Source: an uncultured Bacteroidota bacterium
Lineage (GTDB): Bacteria; Bacteroidota; Bacteroidia; Bacteroidales; VadinHA17
Length of the DNA: 64,000 nt
Reading direction: 5' to 3'
Assembly: GCA_937864815.1 (NCBI GenBank)
Contig: CALMJY010000172.1
Location: 7,322-71,321 of the forward strand
Under the pieces are notes generated by a model. It had not been told where the DNA came from and did not search any database. It saw nothing but the letters and a program-made list of their open reading frames with translations. Within the stretch, counting starts at the first letter, position 1; each line of letters starts with the position of its first letter. This document shows, one piece after another, positions 29,138 through 47,815 of the stretch. A program made the position numbers and the translations under genes.

Positions 29138-30322
29138 TTATATATACTCAAAAGTGACCTTTTTAAGCCATTTTTCTTCCAGTAAACGGGCTATCCTTTT
29201 TACGACTGTTCTTCTGATCTCCAGTTCAACAGGCAGGTTAGGGTCCTGGTGTGCGATATTTATTCTGGTACCTATAATGAAATGAATTTCGTCGCTCTCC
29301 ATGAACATCTTTACAATTTTATCAGCTGGCCCCCTCCCGAGTCTGACGCTGTTATTGAAAGTTTTAAGAAGTTCGTTAACCTTTTGCAGCGTCAGGATTC
29401 CTTCTGTCACCAGGTCAATTCCTTCAAGGAAGCTTTCGGGTGGCAGTTCGGGATCTTCAAATATAAGTTCATCAACAATTTTCCGGTTTAGCTCTCTGGC
29501 AACAATGTCTGCTGTTGTTCCGCCGCAAAGGATAACCTTACCATTATAACCGGTTACCCTGGCAGCCAGCTCCCTGTCCTTTTCCTTGTCGAAAGGAGGT
29601 CCGGTACATAAAAGCAGTTTTCTTGGTTCACGGAAATAAATTGTCGCACAGCTTATATCATCCCTGGCTTTGTAATTATCATTCTTATGAGCCATGGTCA
29701 CTATCTTACCTGAAAGCATGCTTGCCGAAATTGAAGACTCACTGGCTACAAGCCTGGCTGCATATGTTTCAATATTTTCTCTTTCCCAGCCGAAAGGAAA
29801 TTCCTCACTTCCCATCCCGCTCTGGGAGACTCCGTCGGAGCAGAATATTATCCTGTCTTCCTTTTCCGGTAAAAAGGTGCAGGTTTTAAGTACTTTACCG
29901 GCATGTTTACCCTTTTCAAGGACTACCTTTTCCCAGGCAGGCTCAAATACTGTTTTTCCCCTGAGAATAATTGATGAAGGATTATCATACTCCAGGATTG
30001 TTGCCTTTCCGCTGCTTTCAATATCAACTATGGTGAACGTGGAGTAGCTTATTTTTCTCTCGCTGCAGACAGGCAGGGTATTCATTATGATTTCAGCAAT
30101 CCTTTCAACCTGTTTGTGTTCGCGGGTAAAATTTATAGCCATTGTTGAAGTGAGTGTGGCAAGGATGTTTGCTTTTACTCCATGACCCATGCCATCTGAC
30201 AATACAGCGACCACCCTGTCTTCCTCCTTTATATACCTGTATAGGAACACATCTCCGCAGATCCTTTCCCCGTCATGGTTTCTCTGCTGACTGTTTATCT
30301 CTATGAAAAAATCGCGGTTCAC
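29138..30322 (-). CDS. SpoIIE/PP2C-type protein phosphatase with an uncharacterised ~160-aa C-terminal domain
   Basis: 394 aa. Motifs CGDVF, SDGMGHG, CSDGVSQ and DDISCATIYF. It lies 8 nt downstream of the HydS-like gene. Confidence 0.8.
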   Translation of the reverse strand: MNRDFFIEINSQQRNHDGERICGDVFLYRYIKEEDRVVAVLSDGMGHGVKANILATLTSTMAINFTREHKQVERIAEIIMNTLPVCSERKISYSTFTIVDIESSGKATILEYDNPSSIILRGKTVFEPAWEKVVLEKGKHAGKVLKTCTFLPEKEDRIIFCSDGVSQSGMGSEEFPFGWERENIETYAARLVASESSISASMLSGKIVTMAHKNDNYKARDDISCATIYFREPRKLLLCTGPPFDKEKDRELAARVTGYNGKVILCGGTTADIVARELNRKIVDELIFEDPELPPESFLEGIDLVTEGILTLQKVNELLKTFNNSVRLGRGPADKIVKMFMESDEIHFIIGTRINIAHQDPNLPVELEIRRTVVKRIARLLEEKWLKKVTFEYI

Positions 30323-30330
30323 ACTTATTT

Positions 30331-32211
30331 TCAGGTTTTTTTTGGTCTGACCTTCCTGGTTTTGTACGATTCAATGATCGAGTTCAGCATCTGTTCTGTT
30401 TCTGAAGCTCCTTCTCCCAGAAGGAATCCTATCTTCTGAACCATTTCAAGGTTCTTCTCGATAACCTCGCTTACCCTGTTGGTCACCTCCTCTCCCTGCA
30501 CTTCAGGGGAGAAGATGTCACGGATAATGGCACCGCATATTTTGTTTTTTCTGATAGGAAAGATTGAGATATTCAGTACCCTGTCCTCGAAATGAACATC
30601 CTTGCTTACAACCGGCTCATCCTCCTTTAATACAAAAGAGAACATGTTGTATACATTGAACGGGATAAGAGTCTTGAGGTCAGCACCGGCAAGACCTGGT
30701 ATTATGTCTGCAATTGCCTTTGCGTCTTCACCAATGGTGTTTATAAAACTCTGGTTTGAATGAAGTATTTTGAGACTGCTGTCAACAATGACCACTCCGG
30801 TAGGAAGCTTTTCAAGCATGTTATTCATCATGTCGGAGGCACTCTGGGCCATATCTTTTTCTTTCCTGGCCATCTCTTCCGATTCTTTAAGTGCTTTTTT
30901 GGTTTCAGCAAGCTTTTTATTGGTCTGTCGCAGCGATTCGATATACTCCTGCTTATTCCTTAGATTGAAAGTATGACACATCTCAGGTATGGCCAGACCT
31001 TTTGCCACTGTTGCCGCAAACTCACGGCATGAAAGATATCCGCAGGCTCCGCAGTTAACCTCATCATCAGGATTATCCTTTCCCACGATCTTAAGCACCT
31101 CCTGTATAGCCTCTTCCGGTGGATCGGGAATACGATGATCATCGTTCTTAAAGCTTCTTGTAAAGTCCAGCTTTGACCATTTGTCGATATCCTTCTGCCA
31201 TCTGGCTTTGTCAATTGCAGCTGATCTCTTTTCGGCATATTTTCTTACAAGGGCTCTTCTTTTGAACCTCTCTGTATGCAACTGCATTGCAGGTCCGAGA
31301 AGACAACCATGGCAGAAAAAGAGGTTGAAGTGATGCTTAATTGTATCTATGTATTTGTCGAAATCATTTACTGCTTCGAGAATATCTTCCTTCCCTGCGG
31401 CGGTGATCACACTGCTGGAAACCATATCGCGTTTTATCCCGCCTGCCTGTATTATTCCCGGTGGCAGCGGATATAATGCTCCCCAGTTACCATGCGGAGG
31501 ATCGAAATCGGAGAGTTTAACCAGTCTTTCCTGTATCTTGAACTCATCAAAGAGCTGCCTTAACTCCACAAATGTAAGTACACATTCAATAAGTTTGCCA
31601 TCATTATACTGAAGCACCTCATCCTTGGCGTCTATACATGGACCTATCTGTACTGAGGCAACCTCCGGTCCGTAAAGCTCCTTCACAACCATTGCAGTGG
31701 CAATCATTGGCGACACCAGGGGAGCAAGGTTGGGTATCATCTCGGGATGGAATTTTTCAATGAGCTTTACGATTGCAGGGCAATTGGCTGTAATCATATA
31801 TTTCCCCTCAGCTTTTGAGAACAGCATTGCATATTCCCTGGCAATGAGATCTACACCAAAGGAAACCTCATGAACATAGTCGAAGCCAAGCGATCTTATC
31901 ATGGCTACAAACTTCCTGTAATCAGTAATATCATCAAATTCAGAAGCTATGCTGGGTTCAATCAGGGCGGCTGTCTTTCTTCCCGATGAAAGCAAAGCCC
32001 TGACCTCTGTTTTCGAATCACGGAATTCAATTGCATGAGGAGAACATGATACGTAGCAGAGTCCGCAACCAATACAACGCCCGGGAATAATATACGGATG
32101 TGCCCGTTGTGGCTTAACTTCTATTGCATTTACAGGGCAGACACGTACACAGGAATAAGAATTTCTGCACTTTGCATCATTGATATATAGAACAGGCTTC
32201 CGTTCTGTCAT
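30331..32211 (-). CDS. hydS: HydS-like putative sensory [FeFe]-hydrogenase (2x[4Fe-4S] + H-cluster domain + CGACGYxxC Fe-S motif + PAS-like C-terminus)
   Basis: 626 aa. CIGCGLCYVSCSP. H-domain motifs TANCP / GPCIDAKDE / FFCHGCLLG. VNCGACGYLSCREFA...EMC. The C-terminal LPTGVVIVDSSLKILHSNQSF is PAS-like. Confidence 0.8.
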   Translation of the reverse strand: MTERKPVLYINDAKCRNSYSCVRVCPVNAIEVKPQRAHPYIIPGRCIGCGLCYVSCSPHAIEFRDSKTEVRALLSSGRKTAALIEPSIASEFDDITDYRKFVAMIRSLGFDYVHEVSFGVDLIAREYAMLFSKAEGKYMITANCPAIVKLIEKFHPEMIPNLAPLVSPMIATAMVVKELYGPEVASVQIGPCIDAKDEVLQYNDGKLIECVLTFVELRQLFDEFKIQERLVKLSDFDPPHGNWGALYPLPPGIIQAGGIKRDMVSSSVITAAGKEDILEAVNDFDKYIDTIKHHFNLFFCHGCLLGPAMQLHTERFKRRALVRKYAEKRSAAIDKARWQKDIDKWSKLDFTRSFKNDDHRIPDPPEEAIQEVLKIVGKDNPDDEVNCGACGYLSCREFAATVAKGLAIPEMCHTFNLRNKQEYIESLRQTNKKLAETKKALKESEEMARKEKDMAQSASDMMNNMLEKLPTGVVIVDSSLKILHSNQSFINTIGEDAKAIADIIPGLAGADLKTLIPFNVYNMFSFVLKEDEPVVSKDVHFEDRVLNISIFPIRKNKICGAIIRDIFSPEVQGEEVTNRVSEVIEKNLEMVQKIGFLLGEGASETEQMLNSIIESYKTRKVRPKKT

Positions 32212-32228
32212 ATGCTTTATTTTCAGAT

Positions 32229-32483
32229 TTATAATAATCCGGAAAGCTCTTTTTCAAGAATGCTTTCAATTCTGGAAATTGTAACTCCTTCTATAGTAAC
32301 GCCGTTGATATTAAGGTTGGGTCCATTACTGCAAAGGCCCATGCATCTTGCTCCTCTGAAGATAACTTTATCATCAAGGTGATTCTTCCTGAGATACTCC
32401 CTGATAAAGTTGACTACATCCTTGTTACCTCTTGAGAAACAGGAACTACCAAGGCATATCTGCATCTCGATCCTTATTGCCAT
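32229..32483 (-). CDS. Thioredoxin-like [2Fe-2S] ferredoxin
   Basis: Start at the ATG at 32483 (MAIRIEMQICLGSSC...). C-x4-C ... C-x3-C pattern (CLGSSC ... CMGLC). Confidence 0.7.
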   Translation of the reverse strand: MAIRIEMQICLGSSCFSRGNKDVVNFIREYLRKNHLDDKVIFRGARCMGLCSNGPNLNINGVTIEGVTISRIESILEKELSGLL

Positions 32484-32509
32484 TTTCTGTTCAGAAATAA
32501 ACAACAAAT

Positions 32510-32517
32510 CAAAAGTA
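32510..32517 (-). promoter_or_regulatory. Candidate -7 box TACTTTTG for the minus-strand fdx-hydS-PP2C operon
   Basis: The reverse complement of caaaagta matches TAnnTTTG, 26 nt upstream of the ATG at 32483. Confidence 0.4.
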
Positions 32518-32556
32518 ATAAAAAATTACACCTGATAATATTTTTATTAAATTTTA

Positions 32557-32591
32557 TTGTTAATAAAATAACATTGTTTATTTTGTAACAA
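32557..32591. promoter_or_regulatory. Two adjacent Rex-operator-like 18-mers (TTGTTAATAAAATAACAT and TTGTTTATTTTGTAACAA)
   Basis: Both keep TTGT-N10-ACA(A/T) spacing, with G at position 3 and C at position 16, as in the generic Rex box TTGTGAAnnnnTTCACAA. They sit in the divergent promoter region, and a rex gene lies in the same cluster. Confidence 0.45.
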
Positions 32592-32601
32592 TAAAATATT
32601 T

Positions 32602-32609
32602 TATCTTTG
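32602..32609 (+). promoter_or_regulatory. Candidate -7 box TATCTTTG for the hydCBA-hydS/HK operon
   Basis: Matches TAnnTTTG, 26 nt upstream of the ATG at 32636. TTTG at 32582-32585 is a possible -33 element. Confidence 0.45.
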
Positions 32610-32635
32610 TGAGTGTTCAGATGCCTTAAACAGGA

Positions 32636-33109
32636 ATGATGGGAACAGATTTTGACACAATCCTGAAGAAGTATAAACAGGGAAAAAGGGAAGACCTGAT
32701 TCCTATGCTTCAGGAAATACAGGAACATACAGGTTACCTTTCAGAGGAGGCAATTGTAAAGGTTGGAAGCTACCTGGGACTCAGCACTACCAAAATTTAC
32801 GGACTGGCAACATTTTATGACAGGTTCAGGTTTTTTCCTGCAGGAAAGATCCGGATATTTGTTTGTAATGGTACATCCTGCTATCTTAACGGCTCACAGT
32901 CAATTATCAACAAGATTAAGGAGGAAGTAGGGGTTCAGCCCGGCTACACAACAAGGGACGGTAATTTCAGCTATGAAGTAGTATCATGCATGGGTGGTTG
33001 TCATAACGGCCCTGTAGTAAGTATGAACGGAGAGTACCATACCCATGTAAAAGCCTCACAGCTACCCGAGCTGCTTAAGAAACTGAAATACATTATTGAG
33101 AACGATTAA
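32636..33109 (+). CDS. hydC: NuoE-like [2Fe-2S] subunit of NAD(P)H-dependent [FeFe]-hydrogenase
   Basis: 157 aa. CNGTSC ... CMGGCHNGP is the thioredoxin-like 2Fe-2S pattern. The protein shows NuoE/HndA-type similarity throughout. Confidence 0.85.
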   Translation: MMGTDFDTILKKYKQGKREDLIPMLQEIQEHTGYLSEEAIVKVGSYLGLSTTKIYGLATFYDRFRFFPAGKIRIFVCNGTSCYLNGSQSIINKIKEEVGVQPGYTTRDGNFSYEVVSCMGGCHNGPVVSMNGEYHTHVKASQLPELLKKLKYIIEND

Positions 33110-33127
33110 GTCAAGTAAGTTCCGCAG

Positions 33128-35062
33128 ATGGAAGATATTAAGACATTCCTGGTAAATAAGGTTCTGCTTTTTGAATCGGATACACTGCCGCCTGAAACAG
33201 AAAAAAAACTGCAGCAGGTAAGACGGGAAAAACCTGATAATCCTGTTATTTATATTTCGTCTGGTACAAGCAGTATTATTGCCGGTTCGGAAAAGACCTG
33301 TGCTGCAATAAAAGAACATATTGACGAAAATGGACTTGCAGCCGACTTTGTGAAAGTGGGCTGTACCGGTCCTGCAAATTTTGAACCACTGGTATGCATT
33401 CACCTGCCGGGTAAAAACAAACTCTTTTTCAGGAATATAACTGAGGAGAAAGTTGAACCGCTGCTTAACGGGGTGTTTCATAATGATTTAAGTGAAGAGG
33501 ATATTGCCGGCCAGGCAGGAACCAGGGGATTTGAACTCTGGCCCGGTATTCCATTTATGGATGAACTTCCTTTCTTTGTAAACCAGAAGAGGATAATACT
33601 TGGAAACTGCGGATGTTATGATCCCGAAAGCATTGAGGAATACATTGCAAGGGGAGGATACAGGGCATATGCAAAAGCTATTCGTCATTACACCTTCGAG
33701 GAGGTTTGTGACATAGTTGAAAGAAGCGGGCTGCGGGGAAGGAGCGGAGGCGGATATCTCACAGGATTAAAATGGAAGCATGCCCTGAATACCTCAGCTA
33801 ATGCCAGGTATCTTATCTGTAATGCCAAGGAGAGCGACCCCGGGGCATTTACCGACAGAACGATCCTCGAAAGTGATCCGCACAGACTGCTGGAGGGTAT
33901 AGCCATAGCCTCTTATGCGATCGGAGCTGCAAACGCAATAATATTTATGAGGTCAGGATCTGATCATGCAAAAAGCAGGCTTCAGAATGCAATTGACCGT
34001 GCAAGGGAATATGGACTTTTCGGACACAATATCTTCTCCAGCGGATACAATCTTGACATAGTGATCAGGATCGAACCAGGGGCTTTCGTGTGCGGTGAGG
34101 AGACGGCACTTATCAATACTCTTGAAGGAAAAAGGGGTATGCCCAGGCTGAAACCTCCATATCCGACAAGTTCCGGTCTCTTTGGAAAACCAACAGTTAT
34201 CAATAATGTTGAGACACTGATGAATGTTCCTGTGATTATGCAGAACGGCCCCGAATGGTTCCGCAGTATAGGTACGGAAAATAGTCCTGGGACGAAGGTA
34301 TTTGCCATTGCAGGGAAAGGCCGCATGTCGGGAGTTGTTGAAGTCGAAATGGGAACATCAGTCCGGAAAATCATTGATGAAATTGCAGACGGTATTCGCG
34401 AAAGCAGGGAATTCAAAGCTGTTCAGCTCGGAGGAGCATCCGGATCCTTCCTGACAAAGGAAAACCTCGATGTTAAAATTGATTATGAGGCTCTGAGAGA
34501 AAAAGGTATAGGTATGGGAGCCGGTGGCTTTGTAATCATTGACGAGAATACCTGCATGGTTGATCTTGTGAGATATTACATGGAGTTTATCAGGAACGAG
34601 AGTTGTGGCAAGTGCATCCCATGCAGGGAAGGAACCGGAAGAATGCTCGAGATACTCGACGGCGTAATCAGAAAACCGCAGAATGAAGAATCAGGTACTA
34701 CCCTCGAAAGGTTTAAGGGAGTCATGCAGCTTGAAACAATAGCTTCAGTAATGCGTGATGCATCCCTTTGCGGTCTTGGACAGACAGCTCCAAATCCGTT
34801 TATCAGCGCTCTCAGCAACTTCAGGGATGAATTCGAGGAGCATATTTTCGACAGGAAATGCCAGGCTAACATATGCCGCGGACTGAGATCATTTTCAATT
34901 GATGTCGACAAATGTACCGGTTGTACGGCCTGTGCTGCCAAATGTCCTGTTAATGCAATTTATGGCACAAGGTTGCAGCCATTCTTTATTGTCGAGGAAA
35001 AATGCATAGGATGCGGTGTATGCTATGACATATGTAAATTCAGTGCAATTAACGTCAAATAG
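33128..35062 (+). CDS. hydB: NuoF-like FMN/NAD(H)-binding Fe-S subunit of [FeFe]-hydrogenase
   Basis: 644 aa. GRSGGGYLTGLKW, ESDPGAF, ESCGKCIPCREG and two C-terminal CxxCxxCxxxCP ferredoxin motifs. Confidence 0.9.
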   Translation: MEDIKTFLVNKVLLFESDTLPPETEKKLQQVRREKPDNPVIYISSGTSSIIAGSEKTCAAIKEHIDENGLAADFVKVGCTGPANFEPLVCIHLPGKNKLFFRNITEEKVEPLLNGVFHNDLSEEDIAGQAGTRGFELWPGIPFMDELPFFVNQKRIILGNCGCYDPESIEEYIARGGYRAYAKAIRHYTFEEVCDIVERSGLRGRSGGGYLTGLKWKHALNTSANARYLICNAKESDPGAFTDRTILESDPHRLLEGIAIASYAIGAANAIIFMRSGSDHAKSRLQNAIDRAREYGLFGHNIFSSGYNLDIVIRIEPGAFVCGEETALINTLEGKRGMPRLKPPYPTSSGLFGKPTVINNVETLMNVPVIMQNGPEWFRSIGTENSPGTKVFAIAGKGRMSGVVEVEMGTSVRKIIDEIADGIRESREFKAVQLGGASGSFLTKENLDVKIDYEALREKGIGMGAGGFVIIDENTCMVDLVRYYMEFIRNESCGKCIPCREGTGRMLEILDGVIRKPQNEESGTTLERFKGVMQLETIASVMRDASLCGLGQTAPNPFISALSNFRDEFEEHIFDRKCQANICRGLRSFSIDVDKCTGCTACAAKCPVNAIYGTRLQPFFIVEEKCIGCGVCYDICKFSAINVK

Positions 35063-35067
35063 CTATT

Positions 35068-36789
35068 ATGCTTTTTACCATACAGGTTAACAATAAAAAG
35101 ATAAAGGCAGAAAAGGGGGAAACAATACTCTCTGCCCTGAACAAGAACGGAATCATGATTCCGACTCTTTGCAGGATGAAAGATTTTACCCCTACGGGTG
35201 CATGCAGGATGTGCGTTGTTGAGGTGGAGGGTCGCGACAGGCTGGTTACCGCCTGTTCTCAGCCTGTTGAGGAGTGGATGAAGATCCATACTCATTCTCC
35301 CAGAGTGATTCAGGCTAGGAAAACCACAGTTGAACTGCTTCTTTCGAACCATCCTGACGATTGCCTCTATTGTGAACGCAATCTGAGTTGCGAACTTCAG
35401 AATCTTTCTGATGAGCTTAATATCCGGGAGCGACGAATCAGGGGCAAGAAGATAAAACCCCGCCTTGACCAGTCAAGTCCTGCCATTGTACGCGAGCTTT
35501 CAAAATGTATATTATGCGGCCGATGTGTCAGGGTATGCGAGGAGGTGGTTACTGCAAATACACTGGATTTTATAAGGAGAGGGAGGAATACGCATATCGG
35601 AGCCTCCATGGACAGGGATTTCAACTTTTCGAGCTGTATTCACTGCGGACAGTGTCTTCAGGTATGTCCCACCGGAGCACTGCATGAGAAACATAATATA
35701 ACAGAGATCCAGGAATTCCTGCATAAACCTGATATTATTAAAGTTATACAATATTCACCACAGGTTACAGCAGGAATTGCCGAGGAGCTTGGTATCAGGT
35801 ACAACAGGGATACTGACAGGATATTGAATGCAATACTTCGTAAAATAGGATTTGACAAGGTTTTTACAACAGGTTCCGGAACTGACATTTGTATTAAAGA
35901 GGTTACTGACCAGTTGCAGGAAAAGCTTGAAAAGAAGATAAGTACACCTGTTTATATCTCAGCCTGCCCGGCCTGGGTAAAATACTGTGAGCAGTTCATG
36001 CCATCATATATCCCCATGCTTTCAACAGTTAAATCTCCGCAGCAGATAACCGGGGTCCTGATAAAAACACTCGTTGCAACACAGCATAAGGTAAAACCTG
36101 AAAATATCTATTCCGTTTCTGCCACTCCATGCCTGGCAATGAAATTTGAAGCCCGTCGCGATGGTATGATGAGAAAGGGAATAAGTGACGTTGATTCAGT
36201 ATTAACAGTGAGAGAGCTTTCCAGGCTGATAAGACTTTACGGTATTGATTCTTCCAATATAGAACCAGAACCTGCAGACGAACCATTGTCAGGACGAAGT
36301 TCATCCGCAGTCCTTGCTGAGGTCTCCGGAGGATTGACAGAAGCTATTCTGAGGTCGCTTCATTTTCAAATGATTAAAAAAGAGGCGGACAGGCAGTTAT
36401 TCAGAAAACTGAGATCACCCGGTGTATTCAGGGAGGTGACTATGTTGGTTGGTGATCTGGAGGTAAAGGCTGCAGTTGTTGACGGATTGACAGGTCTGGA
36501 AAAACTGAAATCTGCAGTTGCATCAGGTAAAAACTATGATCTGATAGAAGTAATGACCTGTCCCGGAGGATGCGTTCACGGTGCAGGTCTTCCTTTCAGC
36601 GCTTCAAAAGATGACCTGAAGAGCAGGGCAAAACTTATCTATCAGACTGACGATACCGAACCTGTAAACCTTCCATGCAAATCCCCATGTCTGATAAATA
36701 TGTACGAAAAGCTCCTGAAGGAGAATTCTGAGATATCCGACAGAAAAATTTTCCACACTCATTTCGAGAAACGGAATGTCTTACTCTGA
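35068..36789 (+). CDS. hydA: [FeFe]-hydrogenase large subunit, M3 architecture (2Fe-2S, His-ligated 4Fe-4S, 2x4Fe-4S, H-domain), atypical L1 motif
   Basis: 573 aa. HPDDCLYCERNLSC, CILCGRCVRVC and CIHCGQCLQVCP. H-domain motifs ISACPAW / TPCLAMKFE / EVMTCPGGCVHG. Confidence 0.85.
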   Translation: MLFTIQVNNKKIKAEKGETILSALNKNGIMIPTLCRMKDFTPTGACRMCVVEVEGRDRLVTACSQPVEEWMKIHTHSPRVIQARKTTVELLLSNHPDDCLYCERNLSCELQNLSDELNIRERRIRGKKIKPRLDQSSPAIVRELSKCILCGRCVRVCEEVVTANTLDFIRRGRNTHIGASMDRDFNFSSCIHCGQCLQVCPTGALHEKHNITEIQEFLHKPDIIKVIQYSPQVTAGIAEELGIRYNRDTDRILNAILRKIGFDKVFTTGSGTDICIKEVTDQLQEKLEKKISTPVYISACPAWVKYCEQFMPSYIPMLSTVKSPQQITGVLIKTLVATQHKVKPENIYSVSATPCLAMKFEARRDGMMRKGISDVDSVLTVRELSRLIRLYGIDSSNIEPEPADEPLSGRSSSAVLAEVSGGLTEAILRSLHFQMIKKEADRQLFRKLRSPGVFREVTMLVGDLEVKAAVVDGLTGLEKLKSAVASGKNYDLIEVMTCPGGCVHGAGLPFSASKDDLKSRAKLIYQTDDTEPVNLPCKSPCLINMYEKLLKENSEISDRKIFHTHFEKRNVLL

Positions 36790-36801
36790 AATAATTGATC
36801 T

Positions 36802-38763
36802 ATGCTTGTTTACACAATAAAAGAGCTTTGCAGAACCTGCTATACCTGTGTCAGGGAATGTCCGGCAAAAGCAATCCGGATTGTAGGAGGCCAGGCTGAA
36901 GTTATTGATGAACGCTGCATTGTATGTGGTAATTGCACCAAAGTGTGCAGCCAGGGTGCAAAAGTCTTCCTTAATACTGTCGACAGGGTTAAGAAGATAC
37001 TTGATAGCGATGCGAAAATAGCAGCTATTGTTGCACCAAGCTTTCCTGCCGAGTTCTCTGACTTTCCGGATCACAGGGTACTGGTCGGTATGATACGGTC
37101 CTTAGGATTTGATTATGTAGCGGAAGTATCTTTCGGTGCTGACCTGGTTGCTGATAAATTCAGGCAGCTGATTGAACAGAATGAAAGATTTTATATTTCG
37201 TCCGATTGTCCTTCAATTGTAAATTACGTTAAATATTACCATCCGTCACTGTCTGACAAGCTTGCCCCCATTGTTTCACCAATGGTTGCAATGTCGAGAG
37301 TTATGAGGGAAAAATATGGCAGGGATCTTAAGATTGTTTTTATTGGTCCGTGTGTTGCCAAGAAAGCTGAGAGTCCTGAAGTTGATGAAGCTATTACATT
37401 TACAGAACTAAGGGATTTTTTTACCGAATTGAATGTTTCTGCAGACAGGGCTATAACCTCTGATTTTGATGAACCCACAGGAGGCAGAGGAGCAATATTC
37501 CCCGTTACGAGAGGATTGCTGCAGACAGCCAATATTAACGATGATGCAGTGACAGGTAATATAATTGCTGCTGAGGGGAGGATTGATTTCCAGAGTGCTC
37601 TTAAGGAGATGGAAGCAGGCCTTATTCAGGACCAGCATATGGAACTTCTTTGCTGTGAGGGATGTATTATGGGGCCCGGTTTGTCGAAGAATGGTAAACA
37701 GTATAACCGGAGATCACTTGTCAGCTCGTACGCCGGTAAGAAAATGAGCAGCCTTGATTCAAAAAAATGGAAAGAAGCAATCGAAAGTTTCAGTAAACTC
37801 GACCTTAGCTGCCAGCATAAGCCTGAAGCTCCGCGGATAGATGATCTGGGAGAAAATGATGTGGCAGATATCCTCGCCAGAATCAACAAGAAATCAAAGA
37901 AAGATCAGCTGGACTGCGGGGCATGCGGGTATGAAACATGTGTTGAACATGCCATAGCTATAAAGAAAGGAATTGCTGAAGTTGAGATGTGCCTGCCATA
38001 TACAATTGAAAAACTTCACAGATCTGTTAAGGATCTTGCTTTATCGAATGAGAAGTTGTCATCGATGAAGCAGGCACTTAAACAATCTGAAAAGCTTGCA
38101 CATATGGGACAGCTTTCTGCCGGAATAGCGCATGAGCTGAATAATCCTCTTGGAGTGGTAATAATGTACAGCAATATACTTCTGGAAGAAGCTAAAGAAG
38201 GAGATCCTGTAAGTGAGGATCTCAAGTTGATTGTAGAACAGGCCGGAAGATGCAAGAAAATCGTTGCAGGACTTCTCAATTTTGCAAGAAAAAATCAGGT
38301 CAATCACCAGTTGCTTGGTATCCGCGAGCTAATAAACAGCAGTCTTGAAGGGGTAATTATACCTGCAAAAGTAAAGATCAGCATTAATGATCAGACAACA
38401 AATCCCCAAGCGATGCTGGATCATGAGCAGATGATGCAGGTAATAACCAACCTGATTAAAAACGCGATTGATGCCATGCCATCAGACGGTGAAATAAGAA
38501 TAATGCTTGAAGATACACTTAGTGATGTAATAATAACGATATCTGATACAGGTACAGGTATAAAAGAAGAGGACAGGGCAAAAATATTTGAGCCATTCTT
38601 TACAACAAAAAGCATAGGACATGGAACCGGACTTGGACTTGCAACAGCCTATGGCATAGTTAAGATGCATAAGGGACAGATAACAGCCGAGTCGAATGAT
38701 GATCCCGAAAAAGGACCGACCGGTACAAAATTTAAAATTGTCTTACCCAGAGGGAAGGAATGA
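36802..38763 (+). CDS. hydS: HydS-like sensory [FeFe]-hydrogenase domain fused to a histidine kinase (HisKA + HATPase_c)
   Basis: 653 aa. CRTCYTCVRECP and CIVCGNCTKVCS. H-domain motifs SSDCP / GPCVAKKAE / LLCCEGCIMG. LDCGACGYETC...EMC. H-box AHELNNPL, N-box NLIKNAIDA, DTGTGI and GTGLGLA. Confidence 0.85.
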   Translation: MLVYTIKELCRTCYTCVRECPAKAIRIVGGQAEVIDERCIVCGNCTKVCSQGAKVFLNTVDRVKKILDSDAKIAAIVAPSFPAEFSDFPDHRVLVGMIRSLGFDYVAEVSFGADLVADKFRQLIEQNERFYISSDCPSIVNYVKYYHPSLSDKLAPIVSPMVAMSRVMREKYGRDLKIVFIGPCVAKKAESPEVDEAITFTELRDFFTELNVSADRAITSDFDEPTGGRGAIFPVTRGLLQTANINDDAVTGNIIAAEGRIDFQSALKEMEAGLIQDQHMELLCCEGCIMGPGLSKNGKQYNRRSLVSSYAGKKMSSLDSKKWKEAIESFSKLDLSCQHKPEAPRIDDLGENDVADILARINKKSKKDQLDCGACGYETCVEHAIAIKKGIAEVEMCLPYTIEKLHRSVKDLALSNEKLSSMKQALKQSEKLAHMGQLSAGIAHELNNPLGVVIMYSNILLEEAKEGDPVSEDLKLIVEQAGRCKKIVAGLLNFARKNQVNHQLLGIRELINSSLEGVIIPAKVKISINDQTTNPQAMLDHEQMMQVITNLIKNAIDAMPSDGEIRIMLEDTLSDVIITISDTGTGIKEEDRAKIFEPFFTTKSIGHGTGLGLATAYGIVKMHKGQITAESNDDPEKGPTGTKFKIVLPRGKE

Positions 38764-38765: not shown

Positions 38766-38805
38766 GGGAGAATGGGAGAATGGGAGAATGGGAGAATGGG
38801 AGAAA
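38766..38805 (+). repeat. Octamer tandem repeat GGGAGAAT x5, starting 3 nt after the stop codon
   Basis: Four perfect gggagaat units and one gggagaaa unit. Confidence 0.9.
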
Positions 38806-38895: not shown

Positions 38896-38913
38896 TTGTG
38901 AAAAATGTAACAA
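38896..38913. promoter_or_regulatory. Rex-operator-like 18-mer TTGTGAAAAATGTAACAA upstream of the REC/REC-HK/rex operon
   Basis: The left half TTGTGAA is a perfect generic Rex half-site. The flanking arms TTATTGT / ACAATAA are a perfect 7-bp inverted repeat. The site is 60 nt upstream of the ATG at 38974. Confidence 0.45.
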
Positions 38914-38973
38914 TAAATCATATTTATCATAAAAAATGCTAGGATTCAGGAAATTGTTGAAATTTGTAGAAAG

Positions 38974-39369
38974 ATGAAAAAGAGCGATATTACGATACTG
39001 GTTGCAGATGATGATCCGGATTATCTTTTTCAGACAGTTTTTAATTTAAAGAAGGAAGGCTATAAAACTATGGCCGTGGAGAGCCAGGCAGAAGCAGAGG
39101 CAGTTATTGCACGATTTAAGCCCGATCTGGCTATTTTTGACCTGATGATGGAGAGTGATGACAGTGGTTTTATTCTTTGTTACAAGATAAAGAAAAAATA
39201 CCCTGATGTCCCGGTGATACTTGCCACAGCAGTATCATATGAGACCGGACTGTCATTCAGCCTCGATTCCGATCAGGCTAAATCATGGATAAGGGCAGAT
39301 CTTTATCTTGAAAAAGGAATAAGGCCTGAGCAGCTTGACCAGGAGATTATGAAACTCTTAAAACTTTGA
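38974..39369 (+). CDS. Stand-alone response-regulator receiver (CheY-like)
   Basis: 131 aa. ADDD acidic pocket, FDLMM phospho-Asp context. No output domain. Confidence 0.85.
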   Translation: MKKSDITILVADDDPDYLFQTVFNLKKEGYKTMAVESQAEAEAVIARFKPDLAIFDLMMESDDSGFILCYKIKKKYPDVPVILATAVSYETGLSFSLDSDQAKSWIRADLYLEKGIRPEQLDQEIMKLLKL

Positions 39370-39370
39370 A

Positions 39371-40507
39371 ATGGCAGTATTAAAAGTACTGGTAATCGAT
39401 GATGAACCAGGAATCCGTTCTGGTGTTTTACGGATACTGAACAATTTTCATGTCACTTATCCTTTTATGGATGAAGATTTCACATTTGAAGTTTTTGAAG
39501 CAGGTACAGGAGAGGATGGGTTGTCATTCATTGAAAAGGAGGTTCCCGACCTTCTTCTTCTCGATAACAAATTGCCGGGTATGCAGGGTATTGAAGTTCT
39601 GGAGTACATCCGAAAGAGGAATTATGATATAATGGTGGCGATGATAACCTCTTACGCTTCTCTCGATGTGGCAATACGTGCTACAAAGGATGGCGCAATT
39701 GATTTTATCCCGAAACCATTCACCCCTCAGGAACTGAAGTCGAGCATTGAAAACATCACCAAGCAGCTGTATCTTAAGCGTATTACACATAAAATGAACC
39801 AGGAGGGAAAGAAAATACGTTATCAGTTCCTTTCGGTTTTGTCACATGAGTTAAAGGCTCCCCTCAATGCACTTGAAGGTTATCTGCGGATGATGCAGGA
39901 AAAGCAGGCAGGCGACCGGATTGAAGATTATGCAACTCCTATTGAGAGATCGCTTCAACGTGTGCAGGGGATGAGAAATCTTATTATGGATCTGCTTGAT
40001 TTTACAAAGATACGTCTCGAAAGAAAAGAGGAAAAGATTCAGGAGGTAAACCTTGCAGAAGTTGCATCAAATGCAATGGTTACAATACAGCCTTATGCAA
40101 TACAAATGGATGTCATAATGAACCTTGATGTCAGGTCTGATGTTATTATAATGGCTGACCCCGATGATATGGAAATAGTTTTCAATAATCTTATATCAAA
40201 TGCTGTTAAGTATAACAAAAGAGGAGGTAAGGTTGAACTAACAATTGACAATTCAGATAATGAGGCAATTGTGATCTTTGCCGATACAGGAATCGGTATT
40301 ACAAAGGATGATACGGAAAATCTCTTTACTGAATTTGTCAGGATAAAGAATGAAAAGACAAGGAATATCTCCGGAAGTGGTCTGGGACTATCCATTGTGA
40401 AGAAAGTCATAGGGCTATACCATGGTACGATTAAGGTGGAAAGTACTCCTGAGGTAGGCACTGTATTTACTGTCAGATTACCTAAAAAACAATTAACAAT
40501 AAGCTGA
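39371..40507 (+). CDS. REC-HisKA-HATPase hybrid kinase (N-terminal receiver)
   Basis: 378 aa. VIDDEPG / LLLLDNKLPG receiver. H-box SHELKAPLN, NLISNAVKYN, DTGIGI and GSGLGLS. Confidence 0.85.
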   Translation: MAVLKVLVIDDEPGIRSGVLRILNNFHVTYPFMDEDFTFEVFEAGTGEDGLSFIEKEVPDLLLLDNKLPGMQGIEVLEYIRKRNYDIMVAMITSYASLDVAIRATKDGAIDFIPKPFTPQELKSSIENITKQLYLKRITHKMNQEGKKIRYQFLSVLSHELKAPLNALEGYLRMMQEKQAGDRIEDYATPIERSLQRVQGMRNLIMDLLDFTKIRLERKEEKIQEVNLAEVASNAMVTIQPYAIQMDVIMNLDVRSDVIIMADPDDMEIVFNNLISNAVKYNKRGGKVELTIDNSDNEAIVIFADTGIGITKDDTENLFTEFVRIKNEKTRNISGSGLGLSIVKKVIGLYHGTIKVESTPEVGTVFTVRLPKKQLTIS

Positions 40508-40515
40508 AATGAATT

Positions 40516-41130
40516 ATGAAACTACCAGGAAAAACAGTTGAAAGACTTAGTGAATACAGAAGAACCCTTCTGGATTGCCTTAATGAGAAGAGAAACTTTA
40601 TCTTCTCTCATGATCTTGCAGCCCGGCTGCATATTACGGCCGTACAGGTCAGACGCGATCTGATGCTGATCGGATATTCAAGTGTTCTCCGCAAAGGTTA
40701 TGATGTGAGGGAGCTGATCGATACAATCGGTAAGATCATTGACTCTGAAAAGAGTTTGAATGTTGCTGTTGTCGGTATTGGTAATCTCGGCAGAGCAGTT
40801 GCCGGCTACTTCAGGGGAAAACGTTCAAAGCTCAACCTTGTAGCCTCTTTCGACAATGACCCTCACAAGGTTAATAAAGTTATATCAGGTGTTAAATGCT
40901 ATTCATATGCTGATTGCGAAAAACTGGTAAAGGAACTCAATATCAGAATTGCTATTCTTACCGTTCCGCCTGAATTTGCTAAAGAGATAACTGAGGAAAT
41001 CGTCAGATTTGGCATTAAAGGGATTCTCAATTTTACTACTATTCCTCTCAATGTTCCATCCGGTGTATATCTTGAGGAATATGATATGATTACATCCATC
41101 GAGAAGGTTGCATATTTTGTGAAAGAATAA
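40516..41130 (+). CDS. rex: Redox-sensing transcriptional repressor Rex
   Basis: 204 aa. N-terminal winged-helix (ERLSEYRRTL...). Rossmann motif VAVVGIGNLGRA. Confidence 0.9.
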   Translation: MKLPGKTVERLSEYRRTLLDCLNEKRNFIFSHDLAARLHITAVQVRRDLMLIGYSSVLRKGYDVRELIDTIGKIIDSEKSLNVAVVGIGNLGRAVAGYFRGKRSKLNLVASFDNDPHKVNKVISGVKCYSYADCEKLVKELNIRIAILTVPPEFAKEITEEIVRFGIKGILNFTTIPLNVPSGVYLEEYDMITSIEKVAYFVKE

Positions 41131-41151
41131 ATCTAGCTTTCACGGGGAGTA

Positions 41152-42072
41152 ATGAATGTTTACAGAAGCTTTGAGGAGGCCAGGAATATAAGGAATCCGG
41201 TGGTCACCACTGGTTCATTTGATGGTGTCCACATTGGACATAAAACCATACTTAAAAGGCTGAGAACTCTGGCAGAAATAAACAATGGCGAATCAGTACT
41301 TATTACTTTCGATCCCCATCCCAGGAAGGTTCTGTATCCTGAAACTGCAGGTAAAGGGCTTAAGCTAATTAACTCACAACAGGAAAAACTGGAACTGCTG
41401 GCAAAAGCAGGACTCGATAATGTCATAATAATAAGATTTTCACTTGAGTTTTCCAGAATAACAAGTGAGAACTTTGTCAGGGATTTTCTTCATGATATTC
41501 TTAAAGCCAGAGTTATCGTTGCTGGTTTTAATCACCATTTCGGATTCAATCAGGAAGGTGACTACAAACAATTATGGGGATGGCAGGAAAAATATAACTT
41601 TTTGGCTGAAGAAATTCCTGAACAGGAGGTCGAGAATGAAACTGTCAGTTCAACCAAGATCCGCAAAGCTATAAGTGAAGGTTATATTCAGAGGGCTAAT
41701 GCCTATCTAGATCATTATTATATTGTTATTGGAACCCCCATAAATTATCAATCAGAACAGGAAACCGGTTTACCTGTTCTTTGGGAAATACCGATAACTG
41801 AAGAGTGCAAATTACTGCCCTCACCCGGAATCTATGCTGTATCAGCAGAGTCAGTTAACTTTTATTCCAGAGCAATGGTTATTGTTAGTCCGAAAGAAGA
41901 CAGCCAGCCTGAATTGCTGGCACATTTCTTTGACGCACCACCAGACGGGGATAATCTTAACATTACCATGTCATTTCACAAGAAAATCCATAGTGCAGTT
42001 AATTATTCCGAACCAAAGGATGTTTCAAGGATACAATCTGCAAGAGAGGAGATATCAGAGCTTATTTACTGA
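41152..42072 (+). CDS. ribF: RibF-like FMN adenylyltransferase with a degenerate riboflavin-kinase module
   Basis: 306 aa. The N-terminal GSFDGVHIGH FMNAT motif is intact. The C-terminal module has GLPVLW where GxPTAN is expected. Confidence 0.8.
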   Translation: MNVYRSFEEARNIRNPVVTTGSFDGVHIGHKTILKRLRTLAEINNGESVLITFDPHPRKVLYPETAGKGLKLINSQQEKLELLAKAGLDNVIIIRFSLEFSRITSENFVRDFLHDILKARVIVAGFNHHFGFNQEGDYKQLWGWQEKYNFLAEEIPEQEVENETVSSTKIRKAISEGYIQRANAYLDHYYIVIGTPINYQSEQETGLPVLWEIPITEECKLLPSPGIYAVSAESVNFYSRAMVIVSPKEDSQPELLAHFFDAPPDGDNLNITMSFHKKIHSAVNYSEPKDVSRIQSAREEISELIY

Positions 42073-42104
42073 TATCCATCATAACAATTAGCCTGTTTTT
42101 TGAT

Positions 42105-42112
42105 TAAATTTG
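42105..42112 (+). promoter_or_regulatory. Candidate -7 box TAAATTTG upstream of hydG
   Basis: Matches TAnnTTTG, 22 nt upstream of the ATG at 42135. Confidence 0.4.
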
Positions 42113-42134
42113 CACCTTCAGAAATAACAGTCGA

Positions 42135-43559
42135 ATGAGGTTTTCACCGGAAAAATTAAATATACCCGATCAGAGGATGAAGCCGTTTATCGATCCCTCT
42201 GAGTTATGGGACCTGATAAACAATACCAGGCCCGATAAGATCCTTGTAAGGGAAGTTATTGCCAAATCTCTTGATAAAAATCGTCTTACCCTGAAGGAAA
42301 CTGCAGTGCTTATCAATGCTGTAGGAACTGATCTTGCTGATGAAATTAAAGAAGGAGCAAGGGAGCTAAAGCAGCGTGTGTATGGAAACAGGATTGTACT
42401 TTTTGCCCCGCTTTATGTTGGCAACAGATGCACCAATAATTGCAAATACTGCGGATTCAGGGCTTCAAATGCCGATGCAGTTCGTAAAACCCTTGATGAT
42501 AACGAGATCATACAGGAAGTTGAAGCACTTGAGGATAACGGACAGAAACGACTGATTCTTGTGTATGGTGAGCATCCTGAATATTCTCCCGAATATATTG
42601 CACATACAGTAAGGCTGGTATATGGTGTAAAAAAAGGACCGGGTGAAATCCGGAGAGTTAATATAAATGCTGCTCCACTTGATATTGAAGGTTATAGAAA
42701 AGTAGGAGAGGCCGGGATTGGTACATATCAGGTATTCCAGGAGACCTACCATCCTGAAGCCTACACCTGGTATCACCTGGGGGGTAAAAAGAAAGATTAT
42801 GAATGGCGTCTCACTTCACTTGACAGAGCCCAGGAAGCCGGAATTGATGATGTTGGAATTGGCGCCCTCTTCGGCCTGTACGACTGGAGATTTGAAGTGC
42901 TTGGACTGGTAAGACATACAAATCACCTTGAAGCATGCTACAATGTAGGACCTCATACCATTTCATTCCCCAGGATAAAAGACGCGCAAACTCTTAACCT
43001 CGACAAAAAATACGAAACAAGCGACGATGATTTCAAAAAGCTTGTTGCTATACTGAGGCTGGCTGTTCCATATACAGGACTTATTCTTACTGCCAGGGAA
43101 ACTCCTGATGTAAGAAGAGAGGTTTTGCAGTATGGTGTTTCACAAATAGACGGCGGTACAAAACTTGAACTTGGCTCTTATTCTGATTCAAAAAACGAAG
43201 AACAGAACCTGAACAGGGAACAATTCAAAATCAATGATCCACGGTCGCTGGCCGAGGTGATTGATGAGCTGCTTACAAACGATTATCTTCCTTCTTTCTG
43301 CACATCATGCTACCGCATGGGAAGAACCGGAGAACACTTCATGGAATTCTCAGTTCCGGGATTTATAAAAAGATTCTGCACACCGAATGCCATACTCACA
43401 CTTTCCGAATACATTTGTGACTATGGAAGAGGAGACACCATAAATAAAGGATGGATGGTAATAGAAAAAAACCTTGAGAAGCTTGAACCTCCTGTTGCTG
43501 AAAAGACCAGGGAAAAAATAACACGAATAAAAGCCGGAGAACGCGACCTTTATTTCTAA
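42135..43559 (+). CDS. hydG: [FeFe]-hydrogenase maturase HydG (radical SAM tyrosine lyase)
   Basis: 474 aa. CTNNCKYCGF CX3CX2C motif. C-terminal CTSCYRMGRTGEHFMEF...FC auxiliary-cluster motif. Confidence 0.9.
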   Translation: MRFSPEKLNIPDQRMKPFIDPSELWDLINNTRPDKILVREVIAKSLDKNRLTLKETAVLINAVGTDLADEIKEGARELKQRVYGNRIVLFAPLYVGNRCTNNCKYCGFRASNADAVRKTLDDNEIIQEVEALEDNGQKRLILVYGEHPEYSPEYIAHTVRLVYGVKKGPGEIRRVNINAAPLDIEGYRKVGEAGIGTYQVFQETYHPEAYTWYHLGGKKKDYEWRLTSLDRAQEAGIDDVGIGALFGLYDWRFEVLGLVRHTNHLEACYNVGPHTISFPRIKDAQTLNLDKKYETSDDDFKKLVAILRLAVPYTGLILTARETPDVRREVLQYGVSQIDGGTKLELGSYSDSKNEEQNLNREQFKINDPRSLAEVIDELLTNDYLPSFCTSCYRMGRTGEHFMEFSVPGFIKRFCTPNAILTLSEYICDYGRGDTINKGWMVIEKNLEKLEPPVAEKTREKITRIKAGERDLYF

Positions 43560-43584
43560 GAAATTACATTAACTATAATCAATA

Positions 43585-44109
43585 ATGATAAGAATCCTTG
43601 GCATAAAGATCATTGACAGAATCAAGGAAGCAGGCTTAACTCAGGGCATTCTTTCGGAACATGCTTCTGTAATTACAACAAGACTGGGATTTCATGAGGT
43701 GACTGATGAGGTTTGCAGCCGCGAAGCTTACCTGGTAATACATCTGAACGGAGATACTGACGAATATCTGATTCTGGAGAATGAGCTTAAGCTTATTGGT
43801 GGAATTGAGCTGAGGGAAATGATTTTCAATGCTGATAAAGAGCCTCTGAATGTTCTTAAAGACGGTACTCAGACTGAGATCATGGGAATTCTTGTTGAGC
43901 GCGAAAAAGAAGTGGTGCAGACAGTCCAGAAAATTCTCACATCCTATGGATGCAATATACGCACACGCCTGGGTGTCAATGAGATTTTCTTCGGACAACC
44001 TGCAGGACTGATAATCCTTGAACTCAAGGGAGATGCCGTGCAACGATCACTTCTCGAGAAGGATCTCAAGGCACTTGAAAAAGTTCATGTGAGAACGATG
44101 GTTTTTTAA
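43585..44109 (+). CDS. TM1266-like 'iron-only hydrogenase system regulator' family protein, tandem two-domain form
   Basis: 174 aa. The two halves align (I.GI ... IL ... I.TRLG..E ... L.GD ... LE..LK ... R.M.F). The position directly after hydG is typical for this family. Confidence 0.55.
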   Translation: MIRILGIKIIDRIKEAGLTQGILSEHASVITTRLGFHEVTDEVCSREAYLVIHLNGDTDEYLILENELKLIGGIELREMIFNADKEPLNVLKDGTQTEIMGILVEREKEVVQTVQKILTSYGCNIRTRLGVNEIFFGQPAGLIILELKGDAVQRSLLEKDLKALEKVHVRTMVF

Positions 44110-44110
44110 C

Positions 44111-46681: not shown

Positions 46682-46723
46682 TTAATTTTTGATAATGATC
46701 AGGCAAAGTAATAAAAATAATTG

Positions 46724-47815
46724 TCAAACTTTTTTCCTCCGTGTATTATAATGTGCAGAATCGCCCCATTCACCATAGATTATTTCGGCATCAGCGAGAC
46801 TTATACGGGCCTCCAGACAGCTCTGGCAGTCCTCTGCTGAATCATCGGTACAAGGCTTATTATCATATAGTTTATAACTGTCGCGGTATTTCCCGGGAGT
46901 TATATTTGGCATCACAATATTGGCTCCTATCTTCACAGCTTTCTCCCTGCCAATAGGGTCTATTGCCTGGAGAGCTGTGGCTGCCACAATATTGATATCT
47001 TTCATCATCAGGCGTATGACAGCAATCATTTTAAGGGTCAGGTCAAACCTCTGTCTGAGTGGCATAAGTTCTCCTGAATATTTTATGAGCGGAGTATCGG
47101 CGTGCTCAATATATGGCCCCATTCCGCACATATCAATATCAAATTCCCTCATAAAGAGCAGATCATCTGCAAGGTCATCTGTGGTCTGAAACGGAAGCCC
47201 GATCATTACACCTGTCCCTGTCTGGTAGCCTGTATCCTGCAATATTTTGAGACACTCAAGTCTTCGTGTAAAACTGTGTTTGTCATCATTAGGGTGGATT
47301 TTGGAGTAGAGTTCCTTATTTGTTGATTCAACACGCAGAAGGTACCTGTGAGCACCTGCCTCGAACCATCTCCTGTAAACATCAGGTTCCTGTTCTCCAA
47401 CAGATAATGTAATTCCAAGCTCTCCGTTTGACATTACCTTTATTCTGTGAAGAAGGTTTTCAATCCTGTCTGTCACAAACGGACTCTCAAGCTCACCCGA
47501 TTGAAGTGCAATCGACCCGTACCTGTTGATATATGCAAATCTTGCAGCTTCAAGTATTTCATCATCCGAAAGATTATACCTGTGAAGATCTTTATTTCCC
47601 TTTCTGATGCCGCAGTACAGGCAATCCTTTCCGCAGATATTTGAGAATTCTATGAGTCCTCTGAACCAGACCTTCCTGCCGATGTATTTTTCCTTTATTT
47701 CAGCTGACTTCGTGAAAAGAAGAGTCCTTTCCTCACCTTCACATTTCAGAAGTCGCAGAATCTCTTCCTTTGAATAGCTTTCTCTTTCTAGAATATCTTT
47801 TATAATACTTGTCAT
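46724..47815 (-). CDS. hydE: [FeFe]-hydrogenase maturase HydE (radical SAM, BioB-like)
   Basis: 363 aa. CGKDCLYCGIR CX3CX2C motif. HydE-like blocks throughout. Confidence 0.8.
   Translation of the reverse strand: MTSIIKDILERESYSKEEILRLLKCEGEERTLLFTKSAEIKEKYIGRKVWFRGLIEFSNICGKDCLYCGIRKGNKDLHRYNLSDDEILEAARFAYINRYGSIALQSGELESPFVTDRIENLLHRIKVMSNGELGITLSVGEQEPDVYRRWFEAGAHRYLLRVESTNKELYSKIHPNDDKHSFTRRLECLKILQDTGYQTGTGVMIGLPFQTTDDLADDLLFMREFDIDMCGMGPYIEHADTPLIKYSGELMPLRQRFDLTLKMIAVIRLMMKDINIVAATALQAIDPIGREKAVKIGANIVMPNITPGKYRDSYKLYDNKPCTDDSAEDCQSCLEARISLADAEIIYGEWGDSAHYNTRRKKV

Follow-up and report, generated by a model that had tools for sequence, protein, structure and literature searches.

Why should two different putative sensory [FeFe]-hydrogenases stand on either side of a single HydABC-type enzyme, and what might they sense and control there? 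This question is raised by a 64,000-nucleotide stretch of contig CALMJY010000172.1 (GCA_937864815.1) from an uncultured Bacteroidales bacterium, hereafter called the window, in which three genes with an H-cluster domain lie within 8,433 bp, in line with the roughly 8.4 kb given in an earlier note on this DNA. Genes were called by Pfam, NCBIfam and PDB searches, which located every gene that the note had named at the position it gave. We propose that the locus represents, in Bacteroidales, a HydABC (Bfu-type) [FeFe]-hydrogenase regulon equipped with sensors, which takes its inputs from H2 sensors and from Rex, a reading that we consider probable, though with appreciable room for doubt. Neither the layout nor the kinds of parts in it are new. 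A pair of sensor genes on either side of bfuCBA, with the extra sensor upstream of bfuC, was described in three cultured Bacteroidales, Perlabentimonas gracilis, Tenuifilum thalassicum and Williamwhitmania taraxaci (Zheng & Huang 2024, mSystems, PMC11406978), and the combined arrangement, which the earlier note took for an uncharacterised circuit, had been reported before. That paper gave the arrangement two sentences, called its implications unclear, and did not treat Rex, PP2C, response regulators or the HydA pocket. What is added here are the conserved predicted Rex operators, the spread over about 200 species representatives, a relay without a DNA-binding response regulator, and a non-canonical HydA.

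The core of the locus is a run of four genes on the forward strand. HydC (32636..33109; PF01257, E 1.3e-45) is a NuoE-like [2Fe-2S] subunit, HydB (33128..35062) a NuoF-like flavin mononucleotide (FMN)/NADH subunit with an N-terminal domain and a C-terminal 2x[4Fe-4S] part, and HydA (35068..36789; Fe_hyd_lg_C, E 1e-64) a protein of M3 architecture with a non-canonical H-cluster pocket. They are followed by sensor 2 (36802..38763), a HydS-type protein of 653 residues fused to HisKA/HATPase_c (Fer4, H-domain E 1.6e-41, FeS). With intergenic gaps of only 18, 5 and 12 bp, hydC-hydB-hydA-hydS(HK), where HK stands for the histidine kinase part, appears to be a single transcription unit. Three genes on the reverse strand precede hydC. 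These encode a thioredoxin-like [2Fe-2S] ferredoxin resembling HfsA (32229..32507; PF01257, E 5.7e-11), sensor 1 (30331..32211), a HydS-type, HfsB/TmHydS-like protein of 626 residues (2x Fer4, Fe_hyd_lg_C E 1.7e-37, PF04060 FeS), and a PP2C/SpoIIE-type Ser/Thr phosphatase (29138..30322; Pfam SpoIIE, E 2.9e-13). The ferredoxin probably starts at the ATG at 32483, which gives 84 residues, the same call as on JGI contig Ga0212089_10002744. The order of thioredoxin-like ferredoxin, sensor 1 and PP2C is of the hfsABCD type, and no hfsD-like second hydrogenase was found at the locus.

Both sensors carry the hallmarks of putative sensory (group C) [FeFe]-hydrogenases, as judged by the sequence features defined for group C/D enzymes by Land 2020, Chongdar/Birrell 2023 and Cabotaje 2023, and the earlier proposal that the two flanking proteins are putative sensory [FeFe]-hydrogenases is supported by the defining features present in them. 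The two proteins are paralogs, 36% identical across 496 residues, and they diverge only past a coiled coil that in both comes after the C-terminal Fe-S motif. Sensor 1 has the motifs TANCP (L1), GPCIDAK (L2), FFCHGC (L3) and, near the C-terminus, CGACGYLSC-x16-C, and sensor 2 has SSDCP, GPCVAKK, LLCCEGC and CGACGYETC-x16-C. The Cx2Cx4Cx16C spacing is exact in both translations, the four H-cluster cysteine positions are retained, and L1, L2 and L3 are nearly invariant across the orthologs of the two sensors (60 and 81). Proton-relay Cys299 is replaced in both, Met353 has become Gly, and Met497 has become Phe or Leu, so that the pocket reads Asn299, Gly353, Ala358 (then Lys359) and Phe497 in sensor 1, and Asp299, Gly353, Lys358 and Leu497 in sensor 2. 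Asp is the sole substitution of Cys299 reported to leave group A enzymes active, the others crippling them (Chongdar/Birrell 2023). Where sensor 1 has a PAS-like tail, sensor 2 carries a complete HisKA/HATPase kinase with the H-box AHELNNPL and intact N, G1 and G2 boxes.

Is this arrangement more than an accident of one assembly? A scan of one genome per species gave 201 stretches with relatives of sensor 2, of which the best 80 were analysed. Every window protein was run by tblastn against those 80 loci, and synteny was counted where flanking sequence sufficed. In these best 80, the sensor 2 relatives are 75-86% identical and come from uncultured Bacteroidales or Bacteroidota metagenome-assembled genomes (MAGs) of fens, sediments, lakes and digesters. 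Upstream of hydC, 58 of 61 loci have the PP2C and PAS-sensor module, the receiver (REC), REC-kinase, Rex and RibF-like genes follow downstream in 63 of 65, and REC adjoins hydS(HK) in 78 of 80; hydS(HK) is always co-located with hydA, behind which it begins after 12 bp in the window. The gene order is thus strongly conserved among relatives, where the earlier note had asked for it to be sought, and the refuting case named there, a neighbourhood conserved in none of the related genomes, clearly does not apply. Chance co-location or an assembly artefact was considered and ruled out, because the synteny recurs in 80 related loci from independent assemblies. In three loci (L051, L054 and L069) the hydCBA-sensor operon is present and the PAS module upstream of it is missing. 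As a separate observation, the MAG fen_982 holds two copies of the hydrogenase-sensor locus (L007 and L008, on contigs PLMC01000084 and PLMC01000041), which may reflect a true duplication or the binning of two strains into one MAG.

The second input is predicted to be Rex. A gene for this NADH/NAD+-sensing repressor lies within the locus (40516..41130, + strand; NCBIfam NF003995, 194.1 bits against a cut-off of 126), and two adjacent Rex-operator-like palindromes, TTGTTAATAAAATAACAT and TTGTTTATTTTGTAACAA, stand in front of hydC (32557..32591). A Bacteroidetes-type -7 box, TATCTTTG, is located just downstream of both palindromes at 32602-32609, before hydC. A further palindrome, TTGTGAAAAATGTAACAA (38896..38913), lies 61 bp upstream of the REC gene, within the 210-bp spacer that separates this gene from that of sensor 2. 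Sites were counted at no more than two mismatches to TTGTTAANNNNTTAACAA, a consensus borrowed from Firmicutes, and by this measure the whole 64 kb holds only three, all in the locus (two at 32557-32591 and one at 38896-38913). At least one Rex-like site, often as a tandem pair, occurs in 60 of 60 orthologous divergent promoter regions, in most loci about 70-95 bp from the hydC start, against a background of 0.2 per kb, and the sampled loci without the PAS module still have such sites at hydC. When 66 upstream regions were aligned, the sole conserved blocks were the two palindromes and the TAnnTTTG -7 box. In the orthologous REC spacers a Rex-like site stands about 87-90 bp before the start in about 30 of 76. 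The TTGTTAA-type consensus is significant, unlike the classical Rex consensus TTGTGAANNNNTTCACAA, which at three mismatches gave 11 matches versus 6.4 expected, a difference that is not significant. A scan for sigma-70 promoters and terminators returned counts at chance level, as expected for Bacteroidetes. The predicted Rex boxes before hfsABCD, hydG, adhE and ech of T. saccharolyticum have nearly the same sequences as the window sites, and Rex control of the sensory-hydrogenase operon hfsABCD and of hydG has already been predicted in Thermoanaerobacterium. Given the Rex protein and the predicted inverted-repeat operators in the promoter, the locus probably belongs to the Rex regulon. The second palindrome ends 11 bp from the -7 box, and bound Rex should therefore block the hydC promoter.

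Next to sensor 2 lie the relay proteins. The stand-alone REC (38974..39369, + strand; PF00072, E 2.1e-14) has the acidic pocket and Asp56, and the hybrid REC-HisKA-HATPase kinase behind it (39371..40507, + strand) has Asp65 and the H-box SHELKAPL; the H, N, G1 and G2 boxes and the receiver Asp are intact in the relay proteins.

From the domain content, catalytic motifs, synteny and operator conservation that we observed, we infer a mechanism whose ligand (H2), regulatory direction, phosphotransfer partners and targets are proposals. Rex would gate hydCBA-hydS(HK). Since tandem Rex operators lie in the promoter, a low NADH/NAD+ ratio should keep these genes repressed, and a build-up of NADH would release them. 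The two sensors share a common module built from F-cluster and H-cluster domains, the latter lacking the canonical proton relay, together with a Cx2Cx4Cx16C [4Fe-4S] domain and a coiled coil. In this module H2 would reduce the H-cluster and the accessory clusters, and a redox or conformational change would travel via the C-terminal cluster and the coiled coil. For sensor 2 the signal would set the autophosphorylation of the histidine kinase, from which the phosphoryl group would move to the neighbouring REC, the REC-kinase hybrid or both, and finally to a regulator whose gene lies elsewhere. For sensor 1, part of an hfsA/hfsB/hfsC-like module, the signal would reach the PP2C phosphatase by way of the PAS-like tail, and the phosphatase would act on a phospho-Ser/Thr protein. 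The targets of both outputs would be encoded outside the locus. As a net effect, H2 partial pressure might feed back on hydrogenase and fermentation genes, atop the control by Rex through NADH/NAD+.

Several observations weigh against this proposal. No DNA-binding response regulator was found by Pfam among the locus genes or the window open reading frames (ORFs) of at least 150 residues, and the locus encodes neither a STAS partner nor a Ser/Thr kinase. The DNA around the Rex sites is AT-rich, and the consensus that detected them derives from Firmicutes. Sensor 1 lacks Lys358, and L3 of both sensors is C-x2-C (FCHGC and CCEGC), one residue shorter than the C-x3-C of groups A and B; H-cluster binding by the sensors is therefore assumed. 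The tail of sensor 1 matched PAS_9, PAS and PAS_10 with E 0.007-0.011, all below the Pfam cut-offs, and its AlphaFold model is unusable at a predicted local distance difference test (pLDDT) score of 35; the low score is probably due to a shallow alignment, in which the sequences are 82-91% identical to the query. The earlier description of sensor 1 thus stands for its Fe-S and H-domain parts and is weaker for the PAS tail. The unusual pocket of HydA, described below, casts doubt on which flux is regulated. For the multi-input controller proposed in the earlier note, the link to Rex gained from the conserved operator-like palindromes before hydC. Its other part, that both sensors act on this same operon, is drawn from gene position, since the locus encodes no output regulator. 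A reading with one kinase-linked (C1) and one phosphatase-linked (C3) sensor is tentative, because Zheng & Huang 2024 (PMC11406978) put PAS-type and kinase-type sensors alike into C3 of HydDB, a scheme in which C1 is kinase-linked, C3 is phosphatase-linked, and C2 is the remaining subgroup.

What does HydABC itself do? The group A3 subunit set is present, with an M3-type HydA, a NuoE-like HydC and a NuoF-like HydB that have the expected domains. The best PDB match of HydA is HydA1 of T. kivui (E 2.9e-127), and HydB aligns along its full length to B subunits of bifurcating enzymes with solved structures, namely 8a6t_B and, over HydB residues 42-641 with E 1e-173 to 1e-155, 7t2r_B, 7q4v_B and 7p5h_B. 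The M3 architecture named in the earlier note is thus borne out; the active-site pocket is not the canonical one. With residues numbered by offset from conserved motifs, HydA has Cys299->Ala, Glu279->Val, Glu282->Gln, Arg286->Lys, Met353->Thr and Lys358->Met, GGGQP has become GAGLP, and L1 reads SACP; Ser319, Glu361, Met497 and all four H-cluster ligands are retained. Cys299 occurs in 0 of 74 HydA orthologs, in which position 299 is Ala, Ser, Val, Thr or Phe, and as far as the alignment indicates all 74 are without the canonical proton path and Lys358. Compared with 57 canonical representatives, the orthologs have Phe417->Ala and an invariant Glu418 where group A has Gly. Since HydA is without canonical proton-transfer residues, the phrase "electron-bifurcating H2 metabolism" in the earlier note is an assumption.

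These residues bear on the alternative that survives best, which we nonetheless think unlikely, namely that HydABC is not a high-flux bifurcating enzyme. It would be slow, biased, dependent on an alternative proton path or itself a sensor coupled to NADH and ferredoxin, bulk H2 would come from another hydrogenase at a different place in the genome, and the locus would mainly set redox/H2 homeostasis. Ala299, as at position 131 of TmHydS, fits this view together with Val279, Gln282, Thr353, Met358 and the absence of Cys299 from all orthologs, and replacement of Cys299 by anything other than Asp cripples group A enzymes. HydA also scores below both NCBIfam group A cut-offs (NF040763, 578.8 vs 765; TIGR02512, 341.2 vs 405.95) and forms a separate 50%-identity cluster whose next representatives are at most 49% identical; many of its nearest relatives, other M3-type proteins of which some are from Bacteroidales, are also without Cys299. 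A further parallel, drawn by activity and not by sequence, is the B. thetaiotaomicron "A3" enzyme, whose catalytic subunit gave about 0.26 nmol H2/min/optical density unit (OD), versus 2-40 for group B enzymes, and was barely transcribed (Welsh et al. 2025). On the other side, the HydA electron-transfer chain is intact, as are HydB and HydC in their full bifurcating-type form, all with 69-89% conservation, HydA keeps its four H-cluster ligands together with Met497, Ser319 and Glu361, and Hyd genes have been reported as consistently expressed in uncultured vadinHA17 Bacteroidales. Moreover, Glu418 beside Phe417->Ala could offer a substitute proton path, as Glu252 does in TamHydS.

The last point leads to an idea that we put forward tentatively, as a possibility that we would not yet rely on. 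Having given up the canonical Cys-Glu-Ser-Glu-Arg proton path and Lys358, the M3-type HydA of this widespread clade may use a new proton path via the invariant Glu418, or be a deliberately slow, sensor-like NADH/ferredoxin-coupled hydrogenase, with the cluster acting as an H2/redox homeostat. If so, all three H-cluster proteins at the locus would be "non-prototypical", and the locus would be a homeostat rather than a production enzyme plus regulators. This could also account for the low activity of the Bacteroides "A3" enzyme, which is likened to HydA here by activity alone. The pocket is relevant as well to metagenomic surveys that score each such gene as a "group A3 bifurcating hydrogenase".

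A rather improbable alternative concerns the sensors, and takes the HydS-like proteins to be ferredoxin/NADH redox reporters or extra electron-transfer subunits ("BfuT") of HydABC and not H2 sensors. Such a role would suit the naming of T subunits in BfuABC clusters by Zheng & Huang (PMC11406978), the constant co-location of hydS(HK) with hydA and its start 12 bp past that gene, and the three or four Fe-S sites that each sensor has beyond the H-cluster. The atypical L3 spacing, the Lys358 missing from sensor 1, and the H-cluster motifs that are scarcely detectable in Hydrogenedentota C1 proteins (Zheng & Huang 2024, PMC11406978) point the same way. However, all four H-cluster cysteine positions are near-invariant in both sensors, hydG and hydE are present in the locus, and kinase and phosphatase output domains are ill-suited to a pure electron-transfer subunit. 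In addition, TmHydS and TamHydS, which are built alike, carry a working H-cluster and respond to H2 (Land 2020; Chongdar/Birrell 2023; Cabotaje 2023). That the sensors are redundant duplicates without distinct roles, their gene order reflecting the recent common ancestry of the sampled genomes, is very improbable: all 80 loci do belong to one order and the sensor modules are clear paralogs, yet the two are only 36% identical to each other while each is 75-91% conserved across species, they differ in output domain and at positions 299 (Asn/Asp), 358 (Ala/Lys) and 497 (Phe/Leu), and L051, L054 and L069 lost the PAS module alone, which fits separable sensor functions.

We return to the sensor-equipped regulon and to its remaining genes. 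Behind rex lies a gene for a RibF-like protein (41152..42072, + strand), which has a strong flavin adenine dinucleotide (FAD) synthetase domain and a weak riboflavin-kinase part and scores below every NCBIfam RibF cut-off; its regular place behind rex (63 of 65 related loci) suggests a function connected with this cluster, perhaps flavin supply for HydB. The HydG maturase (42135..43559, + strand; TIGR03955, 484.7 bits against an equivalog cut-off of 312) is followed by a small protein of the TM1266/CPF_0552 family, a putative iron-only hydrogenase system regulator (43585..44109, + strand; NF052672, 129.6 bits against a cut-off of 85). The HydE maturase is encoded on the reverse strand (46724..47815; TIGR03956, 348.5 bits against an equivalog cut-off of 254.6), and an unrelated M14 peptidase gene (44111-46681, - strand) separates it from the TM1266-like gene. 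The downstream genes listed in the earlier note are thus all there, with two amendments, namely the sub-threshold RibF-like protein and the peptidase gene before hydE. HydF was not found in the window, either by a motif scan for CxHx40-60HCxxC or by Pfam scans of the rest of the window. The region beside hydE (47996-54179) encodes a three-subunit 2-oxoacid:ferredoxin oxidoreductase, an aminotransferase and an ADP-forming acyl-CoA synthetase, the last of which is also present in 26 of the 80 relatives' loci, in many cases immediately past hydE. Together these enzymes make up an amino-acid fermentation module that reduces ferredoxin and could thereby supply the hydrogenase.

The phosphatase of the upstream module has its PP2C domain at residues 34-226, and its translation shows the metal-binding motifs DGMGHG, CSDG and DDIS intact. 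Its homologs are 85-98% identical and nearly all 394 residues long. Foldseek on its AlphaFold model (pLDDT 56) gave SpoIIE/PPM matches for the N-terminal domain alone. The C-terminal part of about 160 residues (29138-29650) forms a conserved domain that matches no Pfam family. By the low-confidence model its fold would be alpha/beta, and it could be a partner-binding or regulatory part; a flavodoxin-like fold was set aside, the Foldseek matches being weak and not trusted. A second SpoIIE/PP2C phosphatase is encoded at 20248-23574, a protein of 1108 residues in which a two-component-regulator propeller repeat is combined with a phosphatase domain at the C-terminus, and PP2C signalling is therefore used elsewhere in the genome too.

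Short tandem arrays were also noted at gene ends (18790-18868, 29045-29136, 38766-38804 and 61456-61487), with units of 7-8 bp in 3.6-6.1 copies that match at 80-100%. The repeat unit differs between the arrays. Three of them are intergenic, directly after stop codons, such as GGGAGAAT in 4.9 copies directly after the stop codon of sensor 2, and the arrays at 18790-18868 overlap the start of ORF 15078-18917.

For the question of how putative sensory [FeFe]-hydrogenases transmit what they sense, a sensor-kinase fusion offers an output that can be measured in vitro, as autophosphorylation with and without H2, and the PAS-type paralog at the same locus can serve for comparison. Environmental Bacteroidales of fens, sediments and digesters commonly carry the cluster, and in such habitats fermentation and methanogenesis are governed by H2 partial pressure.

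Compared with known systems, the bfuT-bfuCBA-bfuT clusters are like the window, by their published description, in having one sensor upstream of bfuC/hydC and a kinase-type sensor downstream of bfuA/hydA. BfuABC clusters with a downstream kinase-domain sensor form sub-type V (Zheng & Huang 2024, PMC11406978). In those of Hydrogenedentota and Caldithrix abyssi a kinase-domain HydS, assigned to HydDB C3, directly follows bfuA as in the window; unlike the window, they have a single sensor, and the TSC(S)P of their BfuA keeps the first Cys, where the window HydA has SACP. T. saccharolyticum hfsABCD shares with the window the order of thioredoxin-like ferredoxin, PAS-type hfsB and SpoIIE/PP2C-like gene, as well as a predicted Rex box of the TTGTTAATAAATTAAC type about 78 bp upstream, and genetic evidence points to a regulatory role for hfsB and the hfs module. 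It differs in belonging to a Firmicute, in its second hydrogenase hfsD, in having no kinase-fused sensor, and in a rex gene that lies outside the locus.

Among single proteins, T. maritima HydS (group C, M2f), encoded near HydABC, has the same order as sensor 1, with 2x[4Fe-4S], H-domain, Cx2Cx4Cx16C and PAS, the last of which is putative in sensor 1. TmHydS and the window sensors have all lost Cys299 and Met353, with Gly at 353. At 299 the residue is Ala in TmHydS (its own position 131) and Asn or Asp in the window sensors, and at 497 it is Ser in TmHydS as against Phe or Leu; sensor 2 further differs in its complete histidine kinase in place of PAS. Thermoanaerobacter mathranii TamHydS (group D, M2e) resembles the window HydA in its Ala299, its hydroxyl residue at 353, and a proton path via Glu252, which is a hydrophobic residue in group A. 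It is, however, a small M2e protein without NuoE/NuoF partners, while the window HydA is a full M3 Bfu-type subunit with Met497. The HoxBC-HoxJ-HoxA system of Cupriavidus necator is built of unrelated [NiFe] proteins, with sensor and kinase separate and the response regulator HoxA known, yet it is alike in principle, in that a low-activity hydrogenase senses H2 and steers a histidine kinase over hydrogenase genes.

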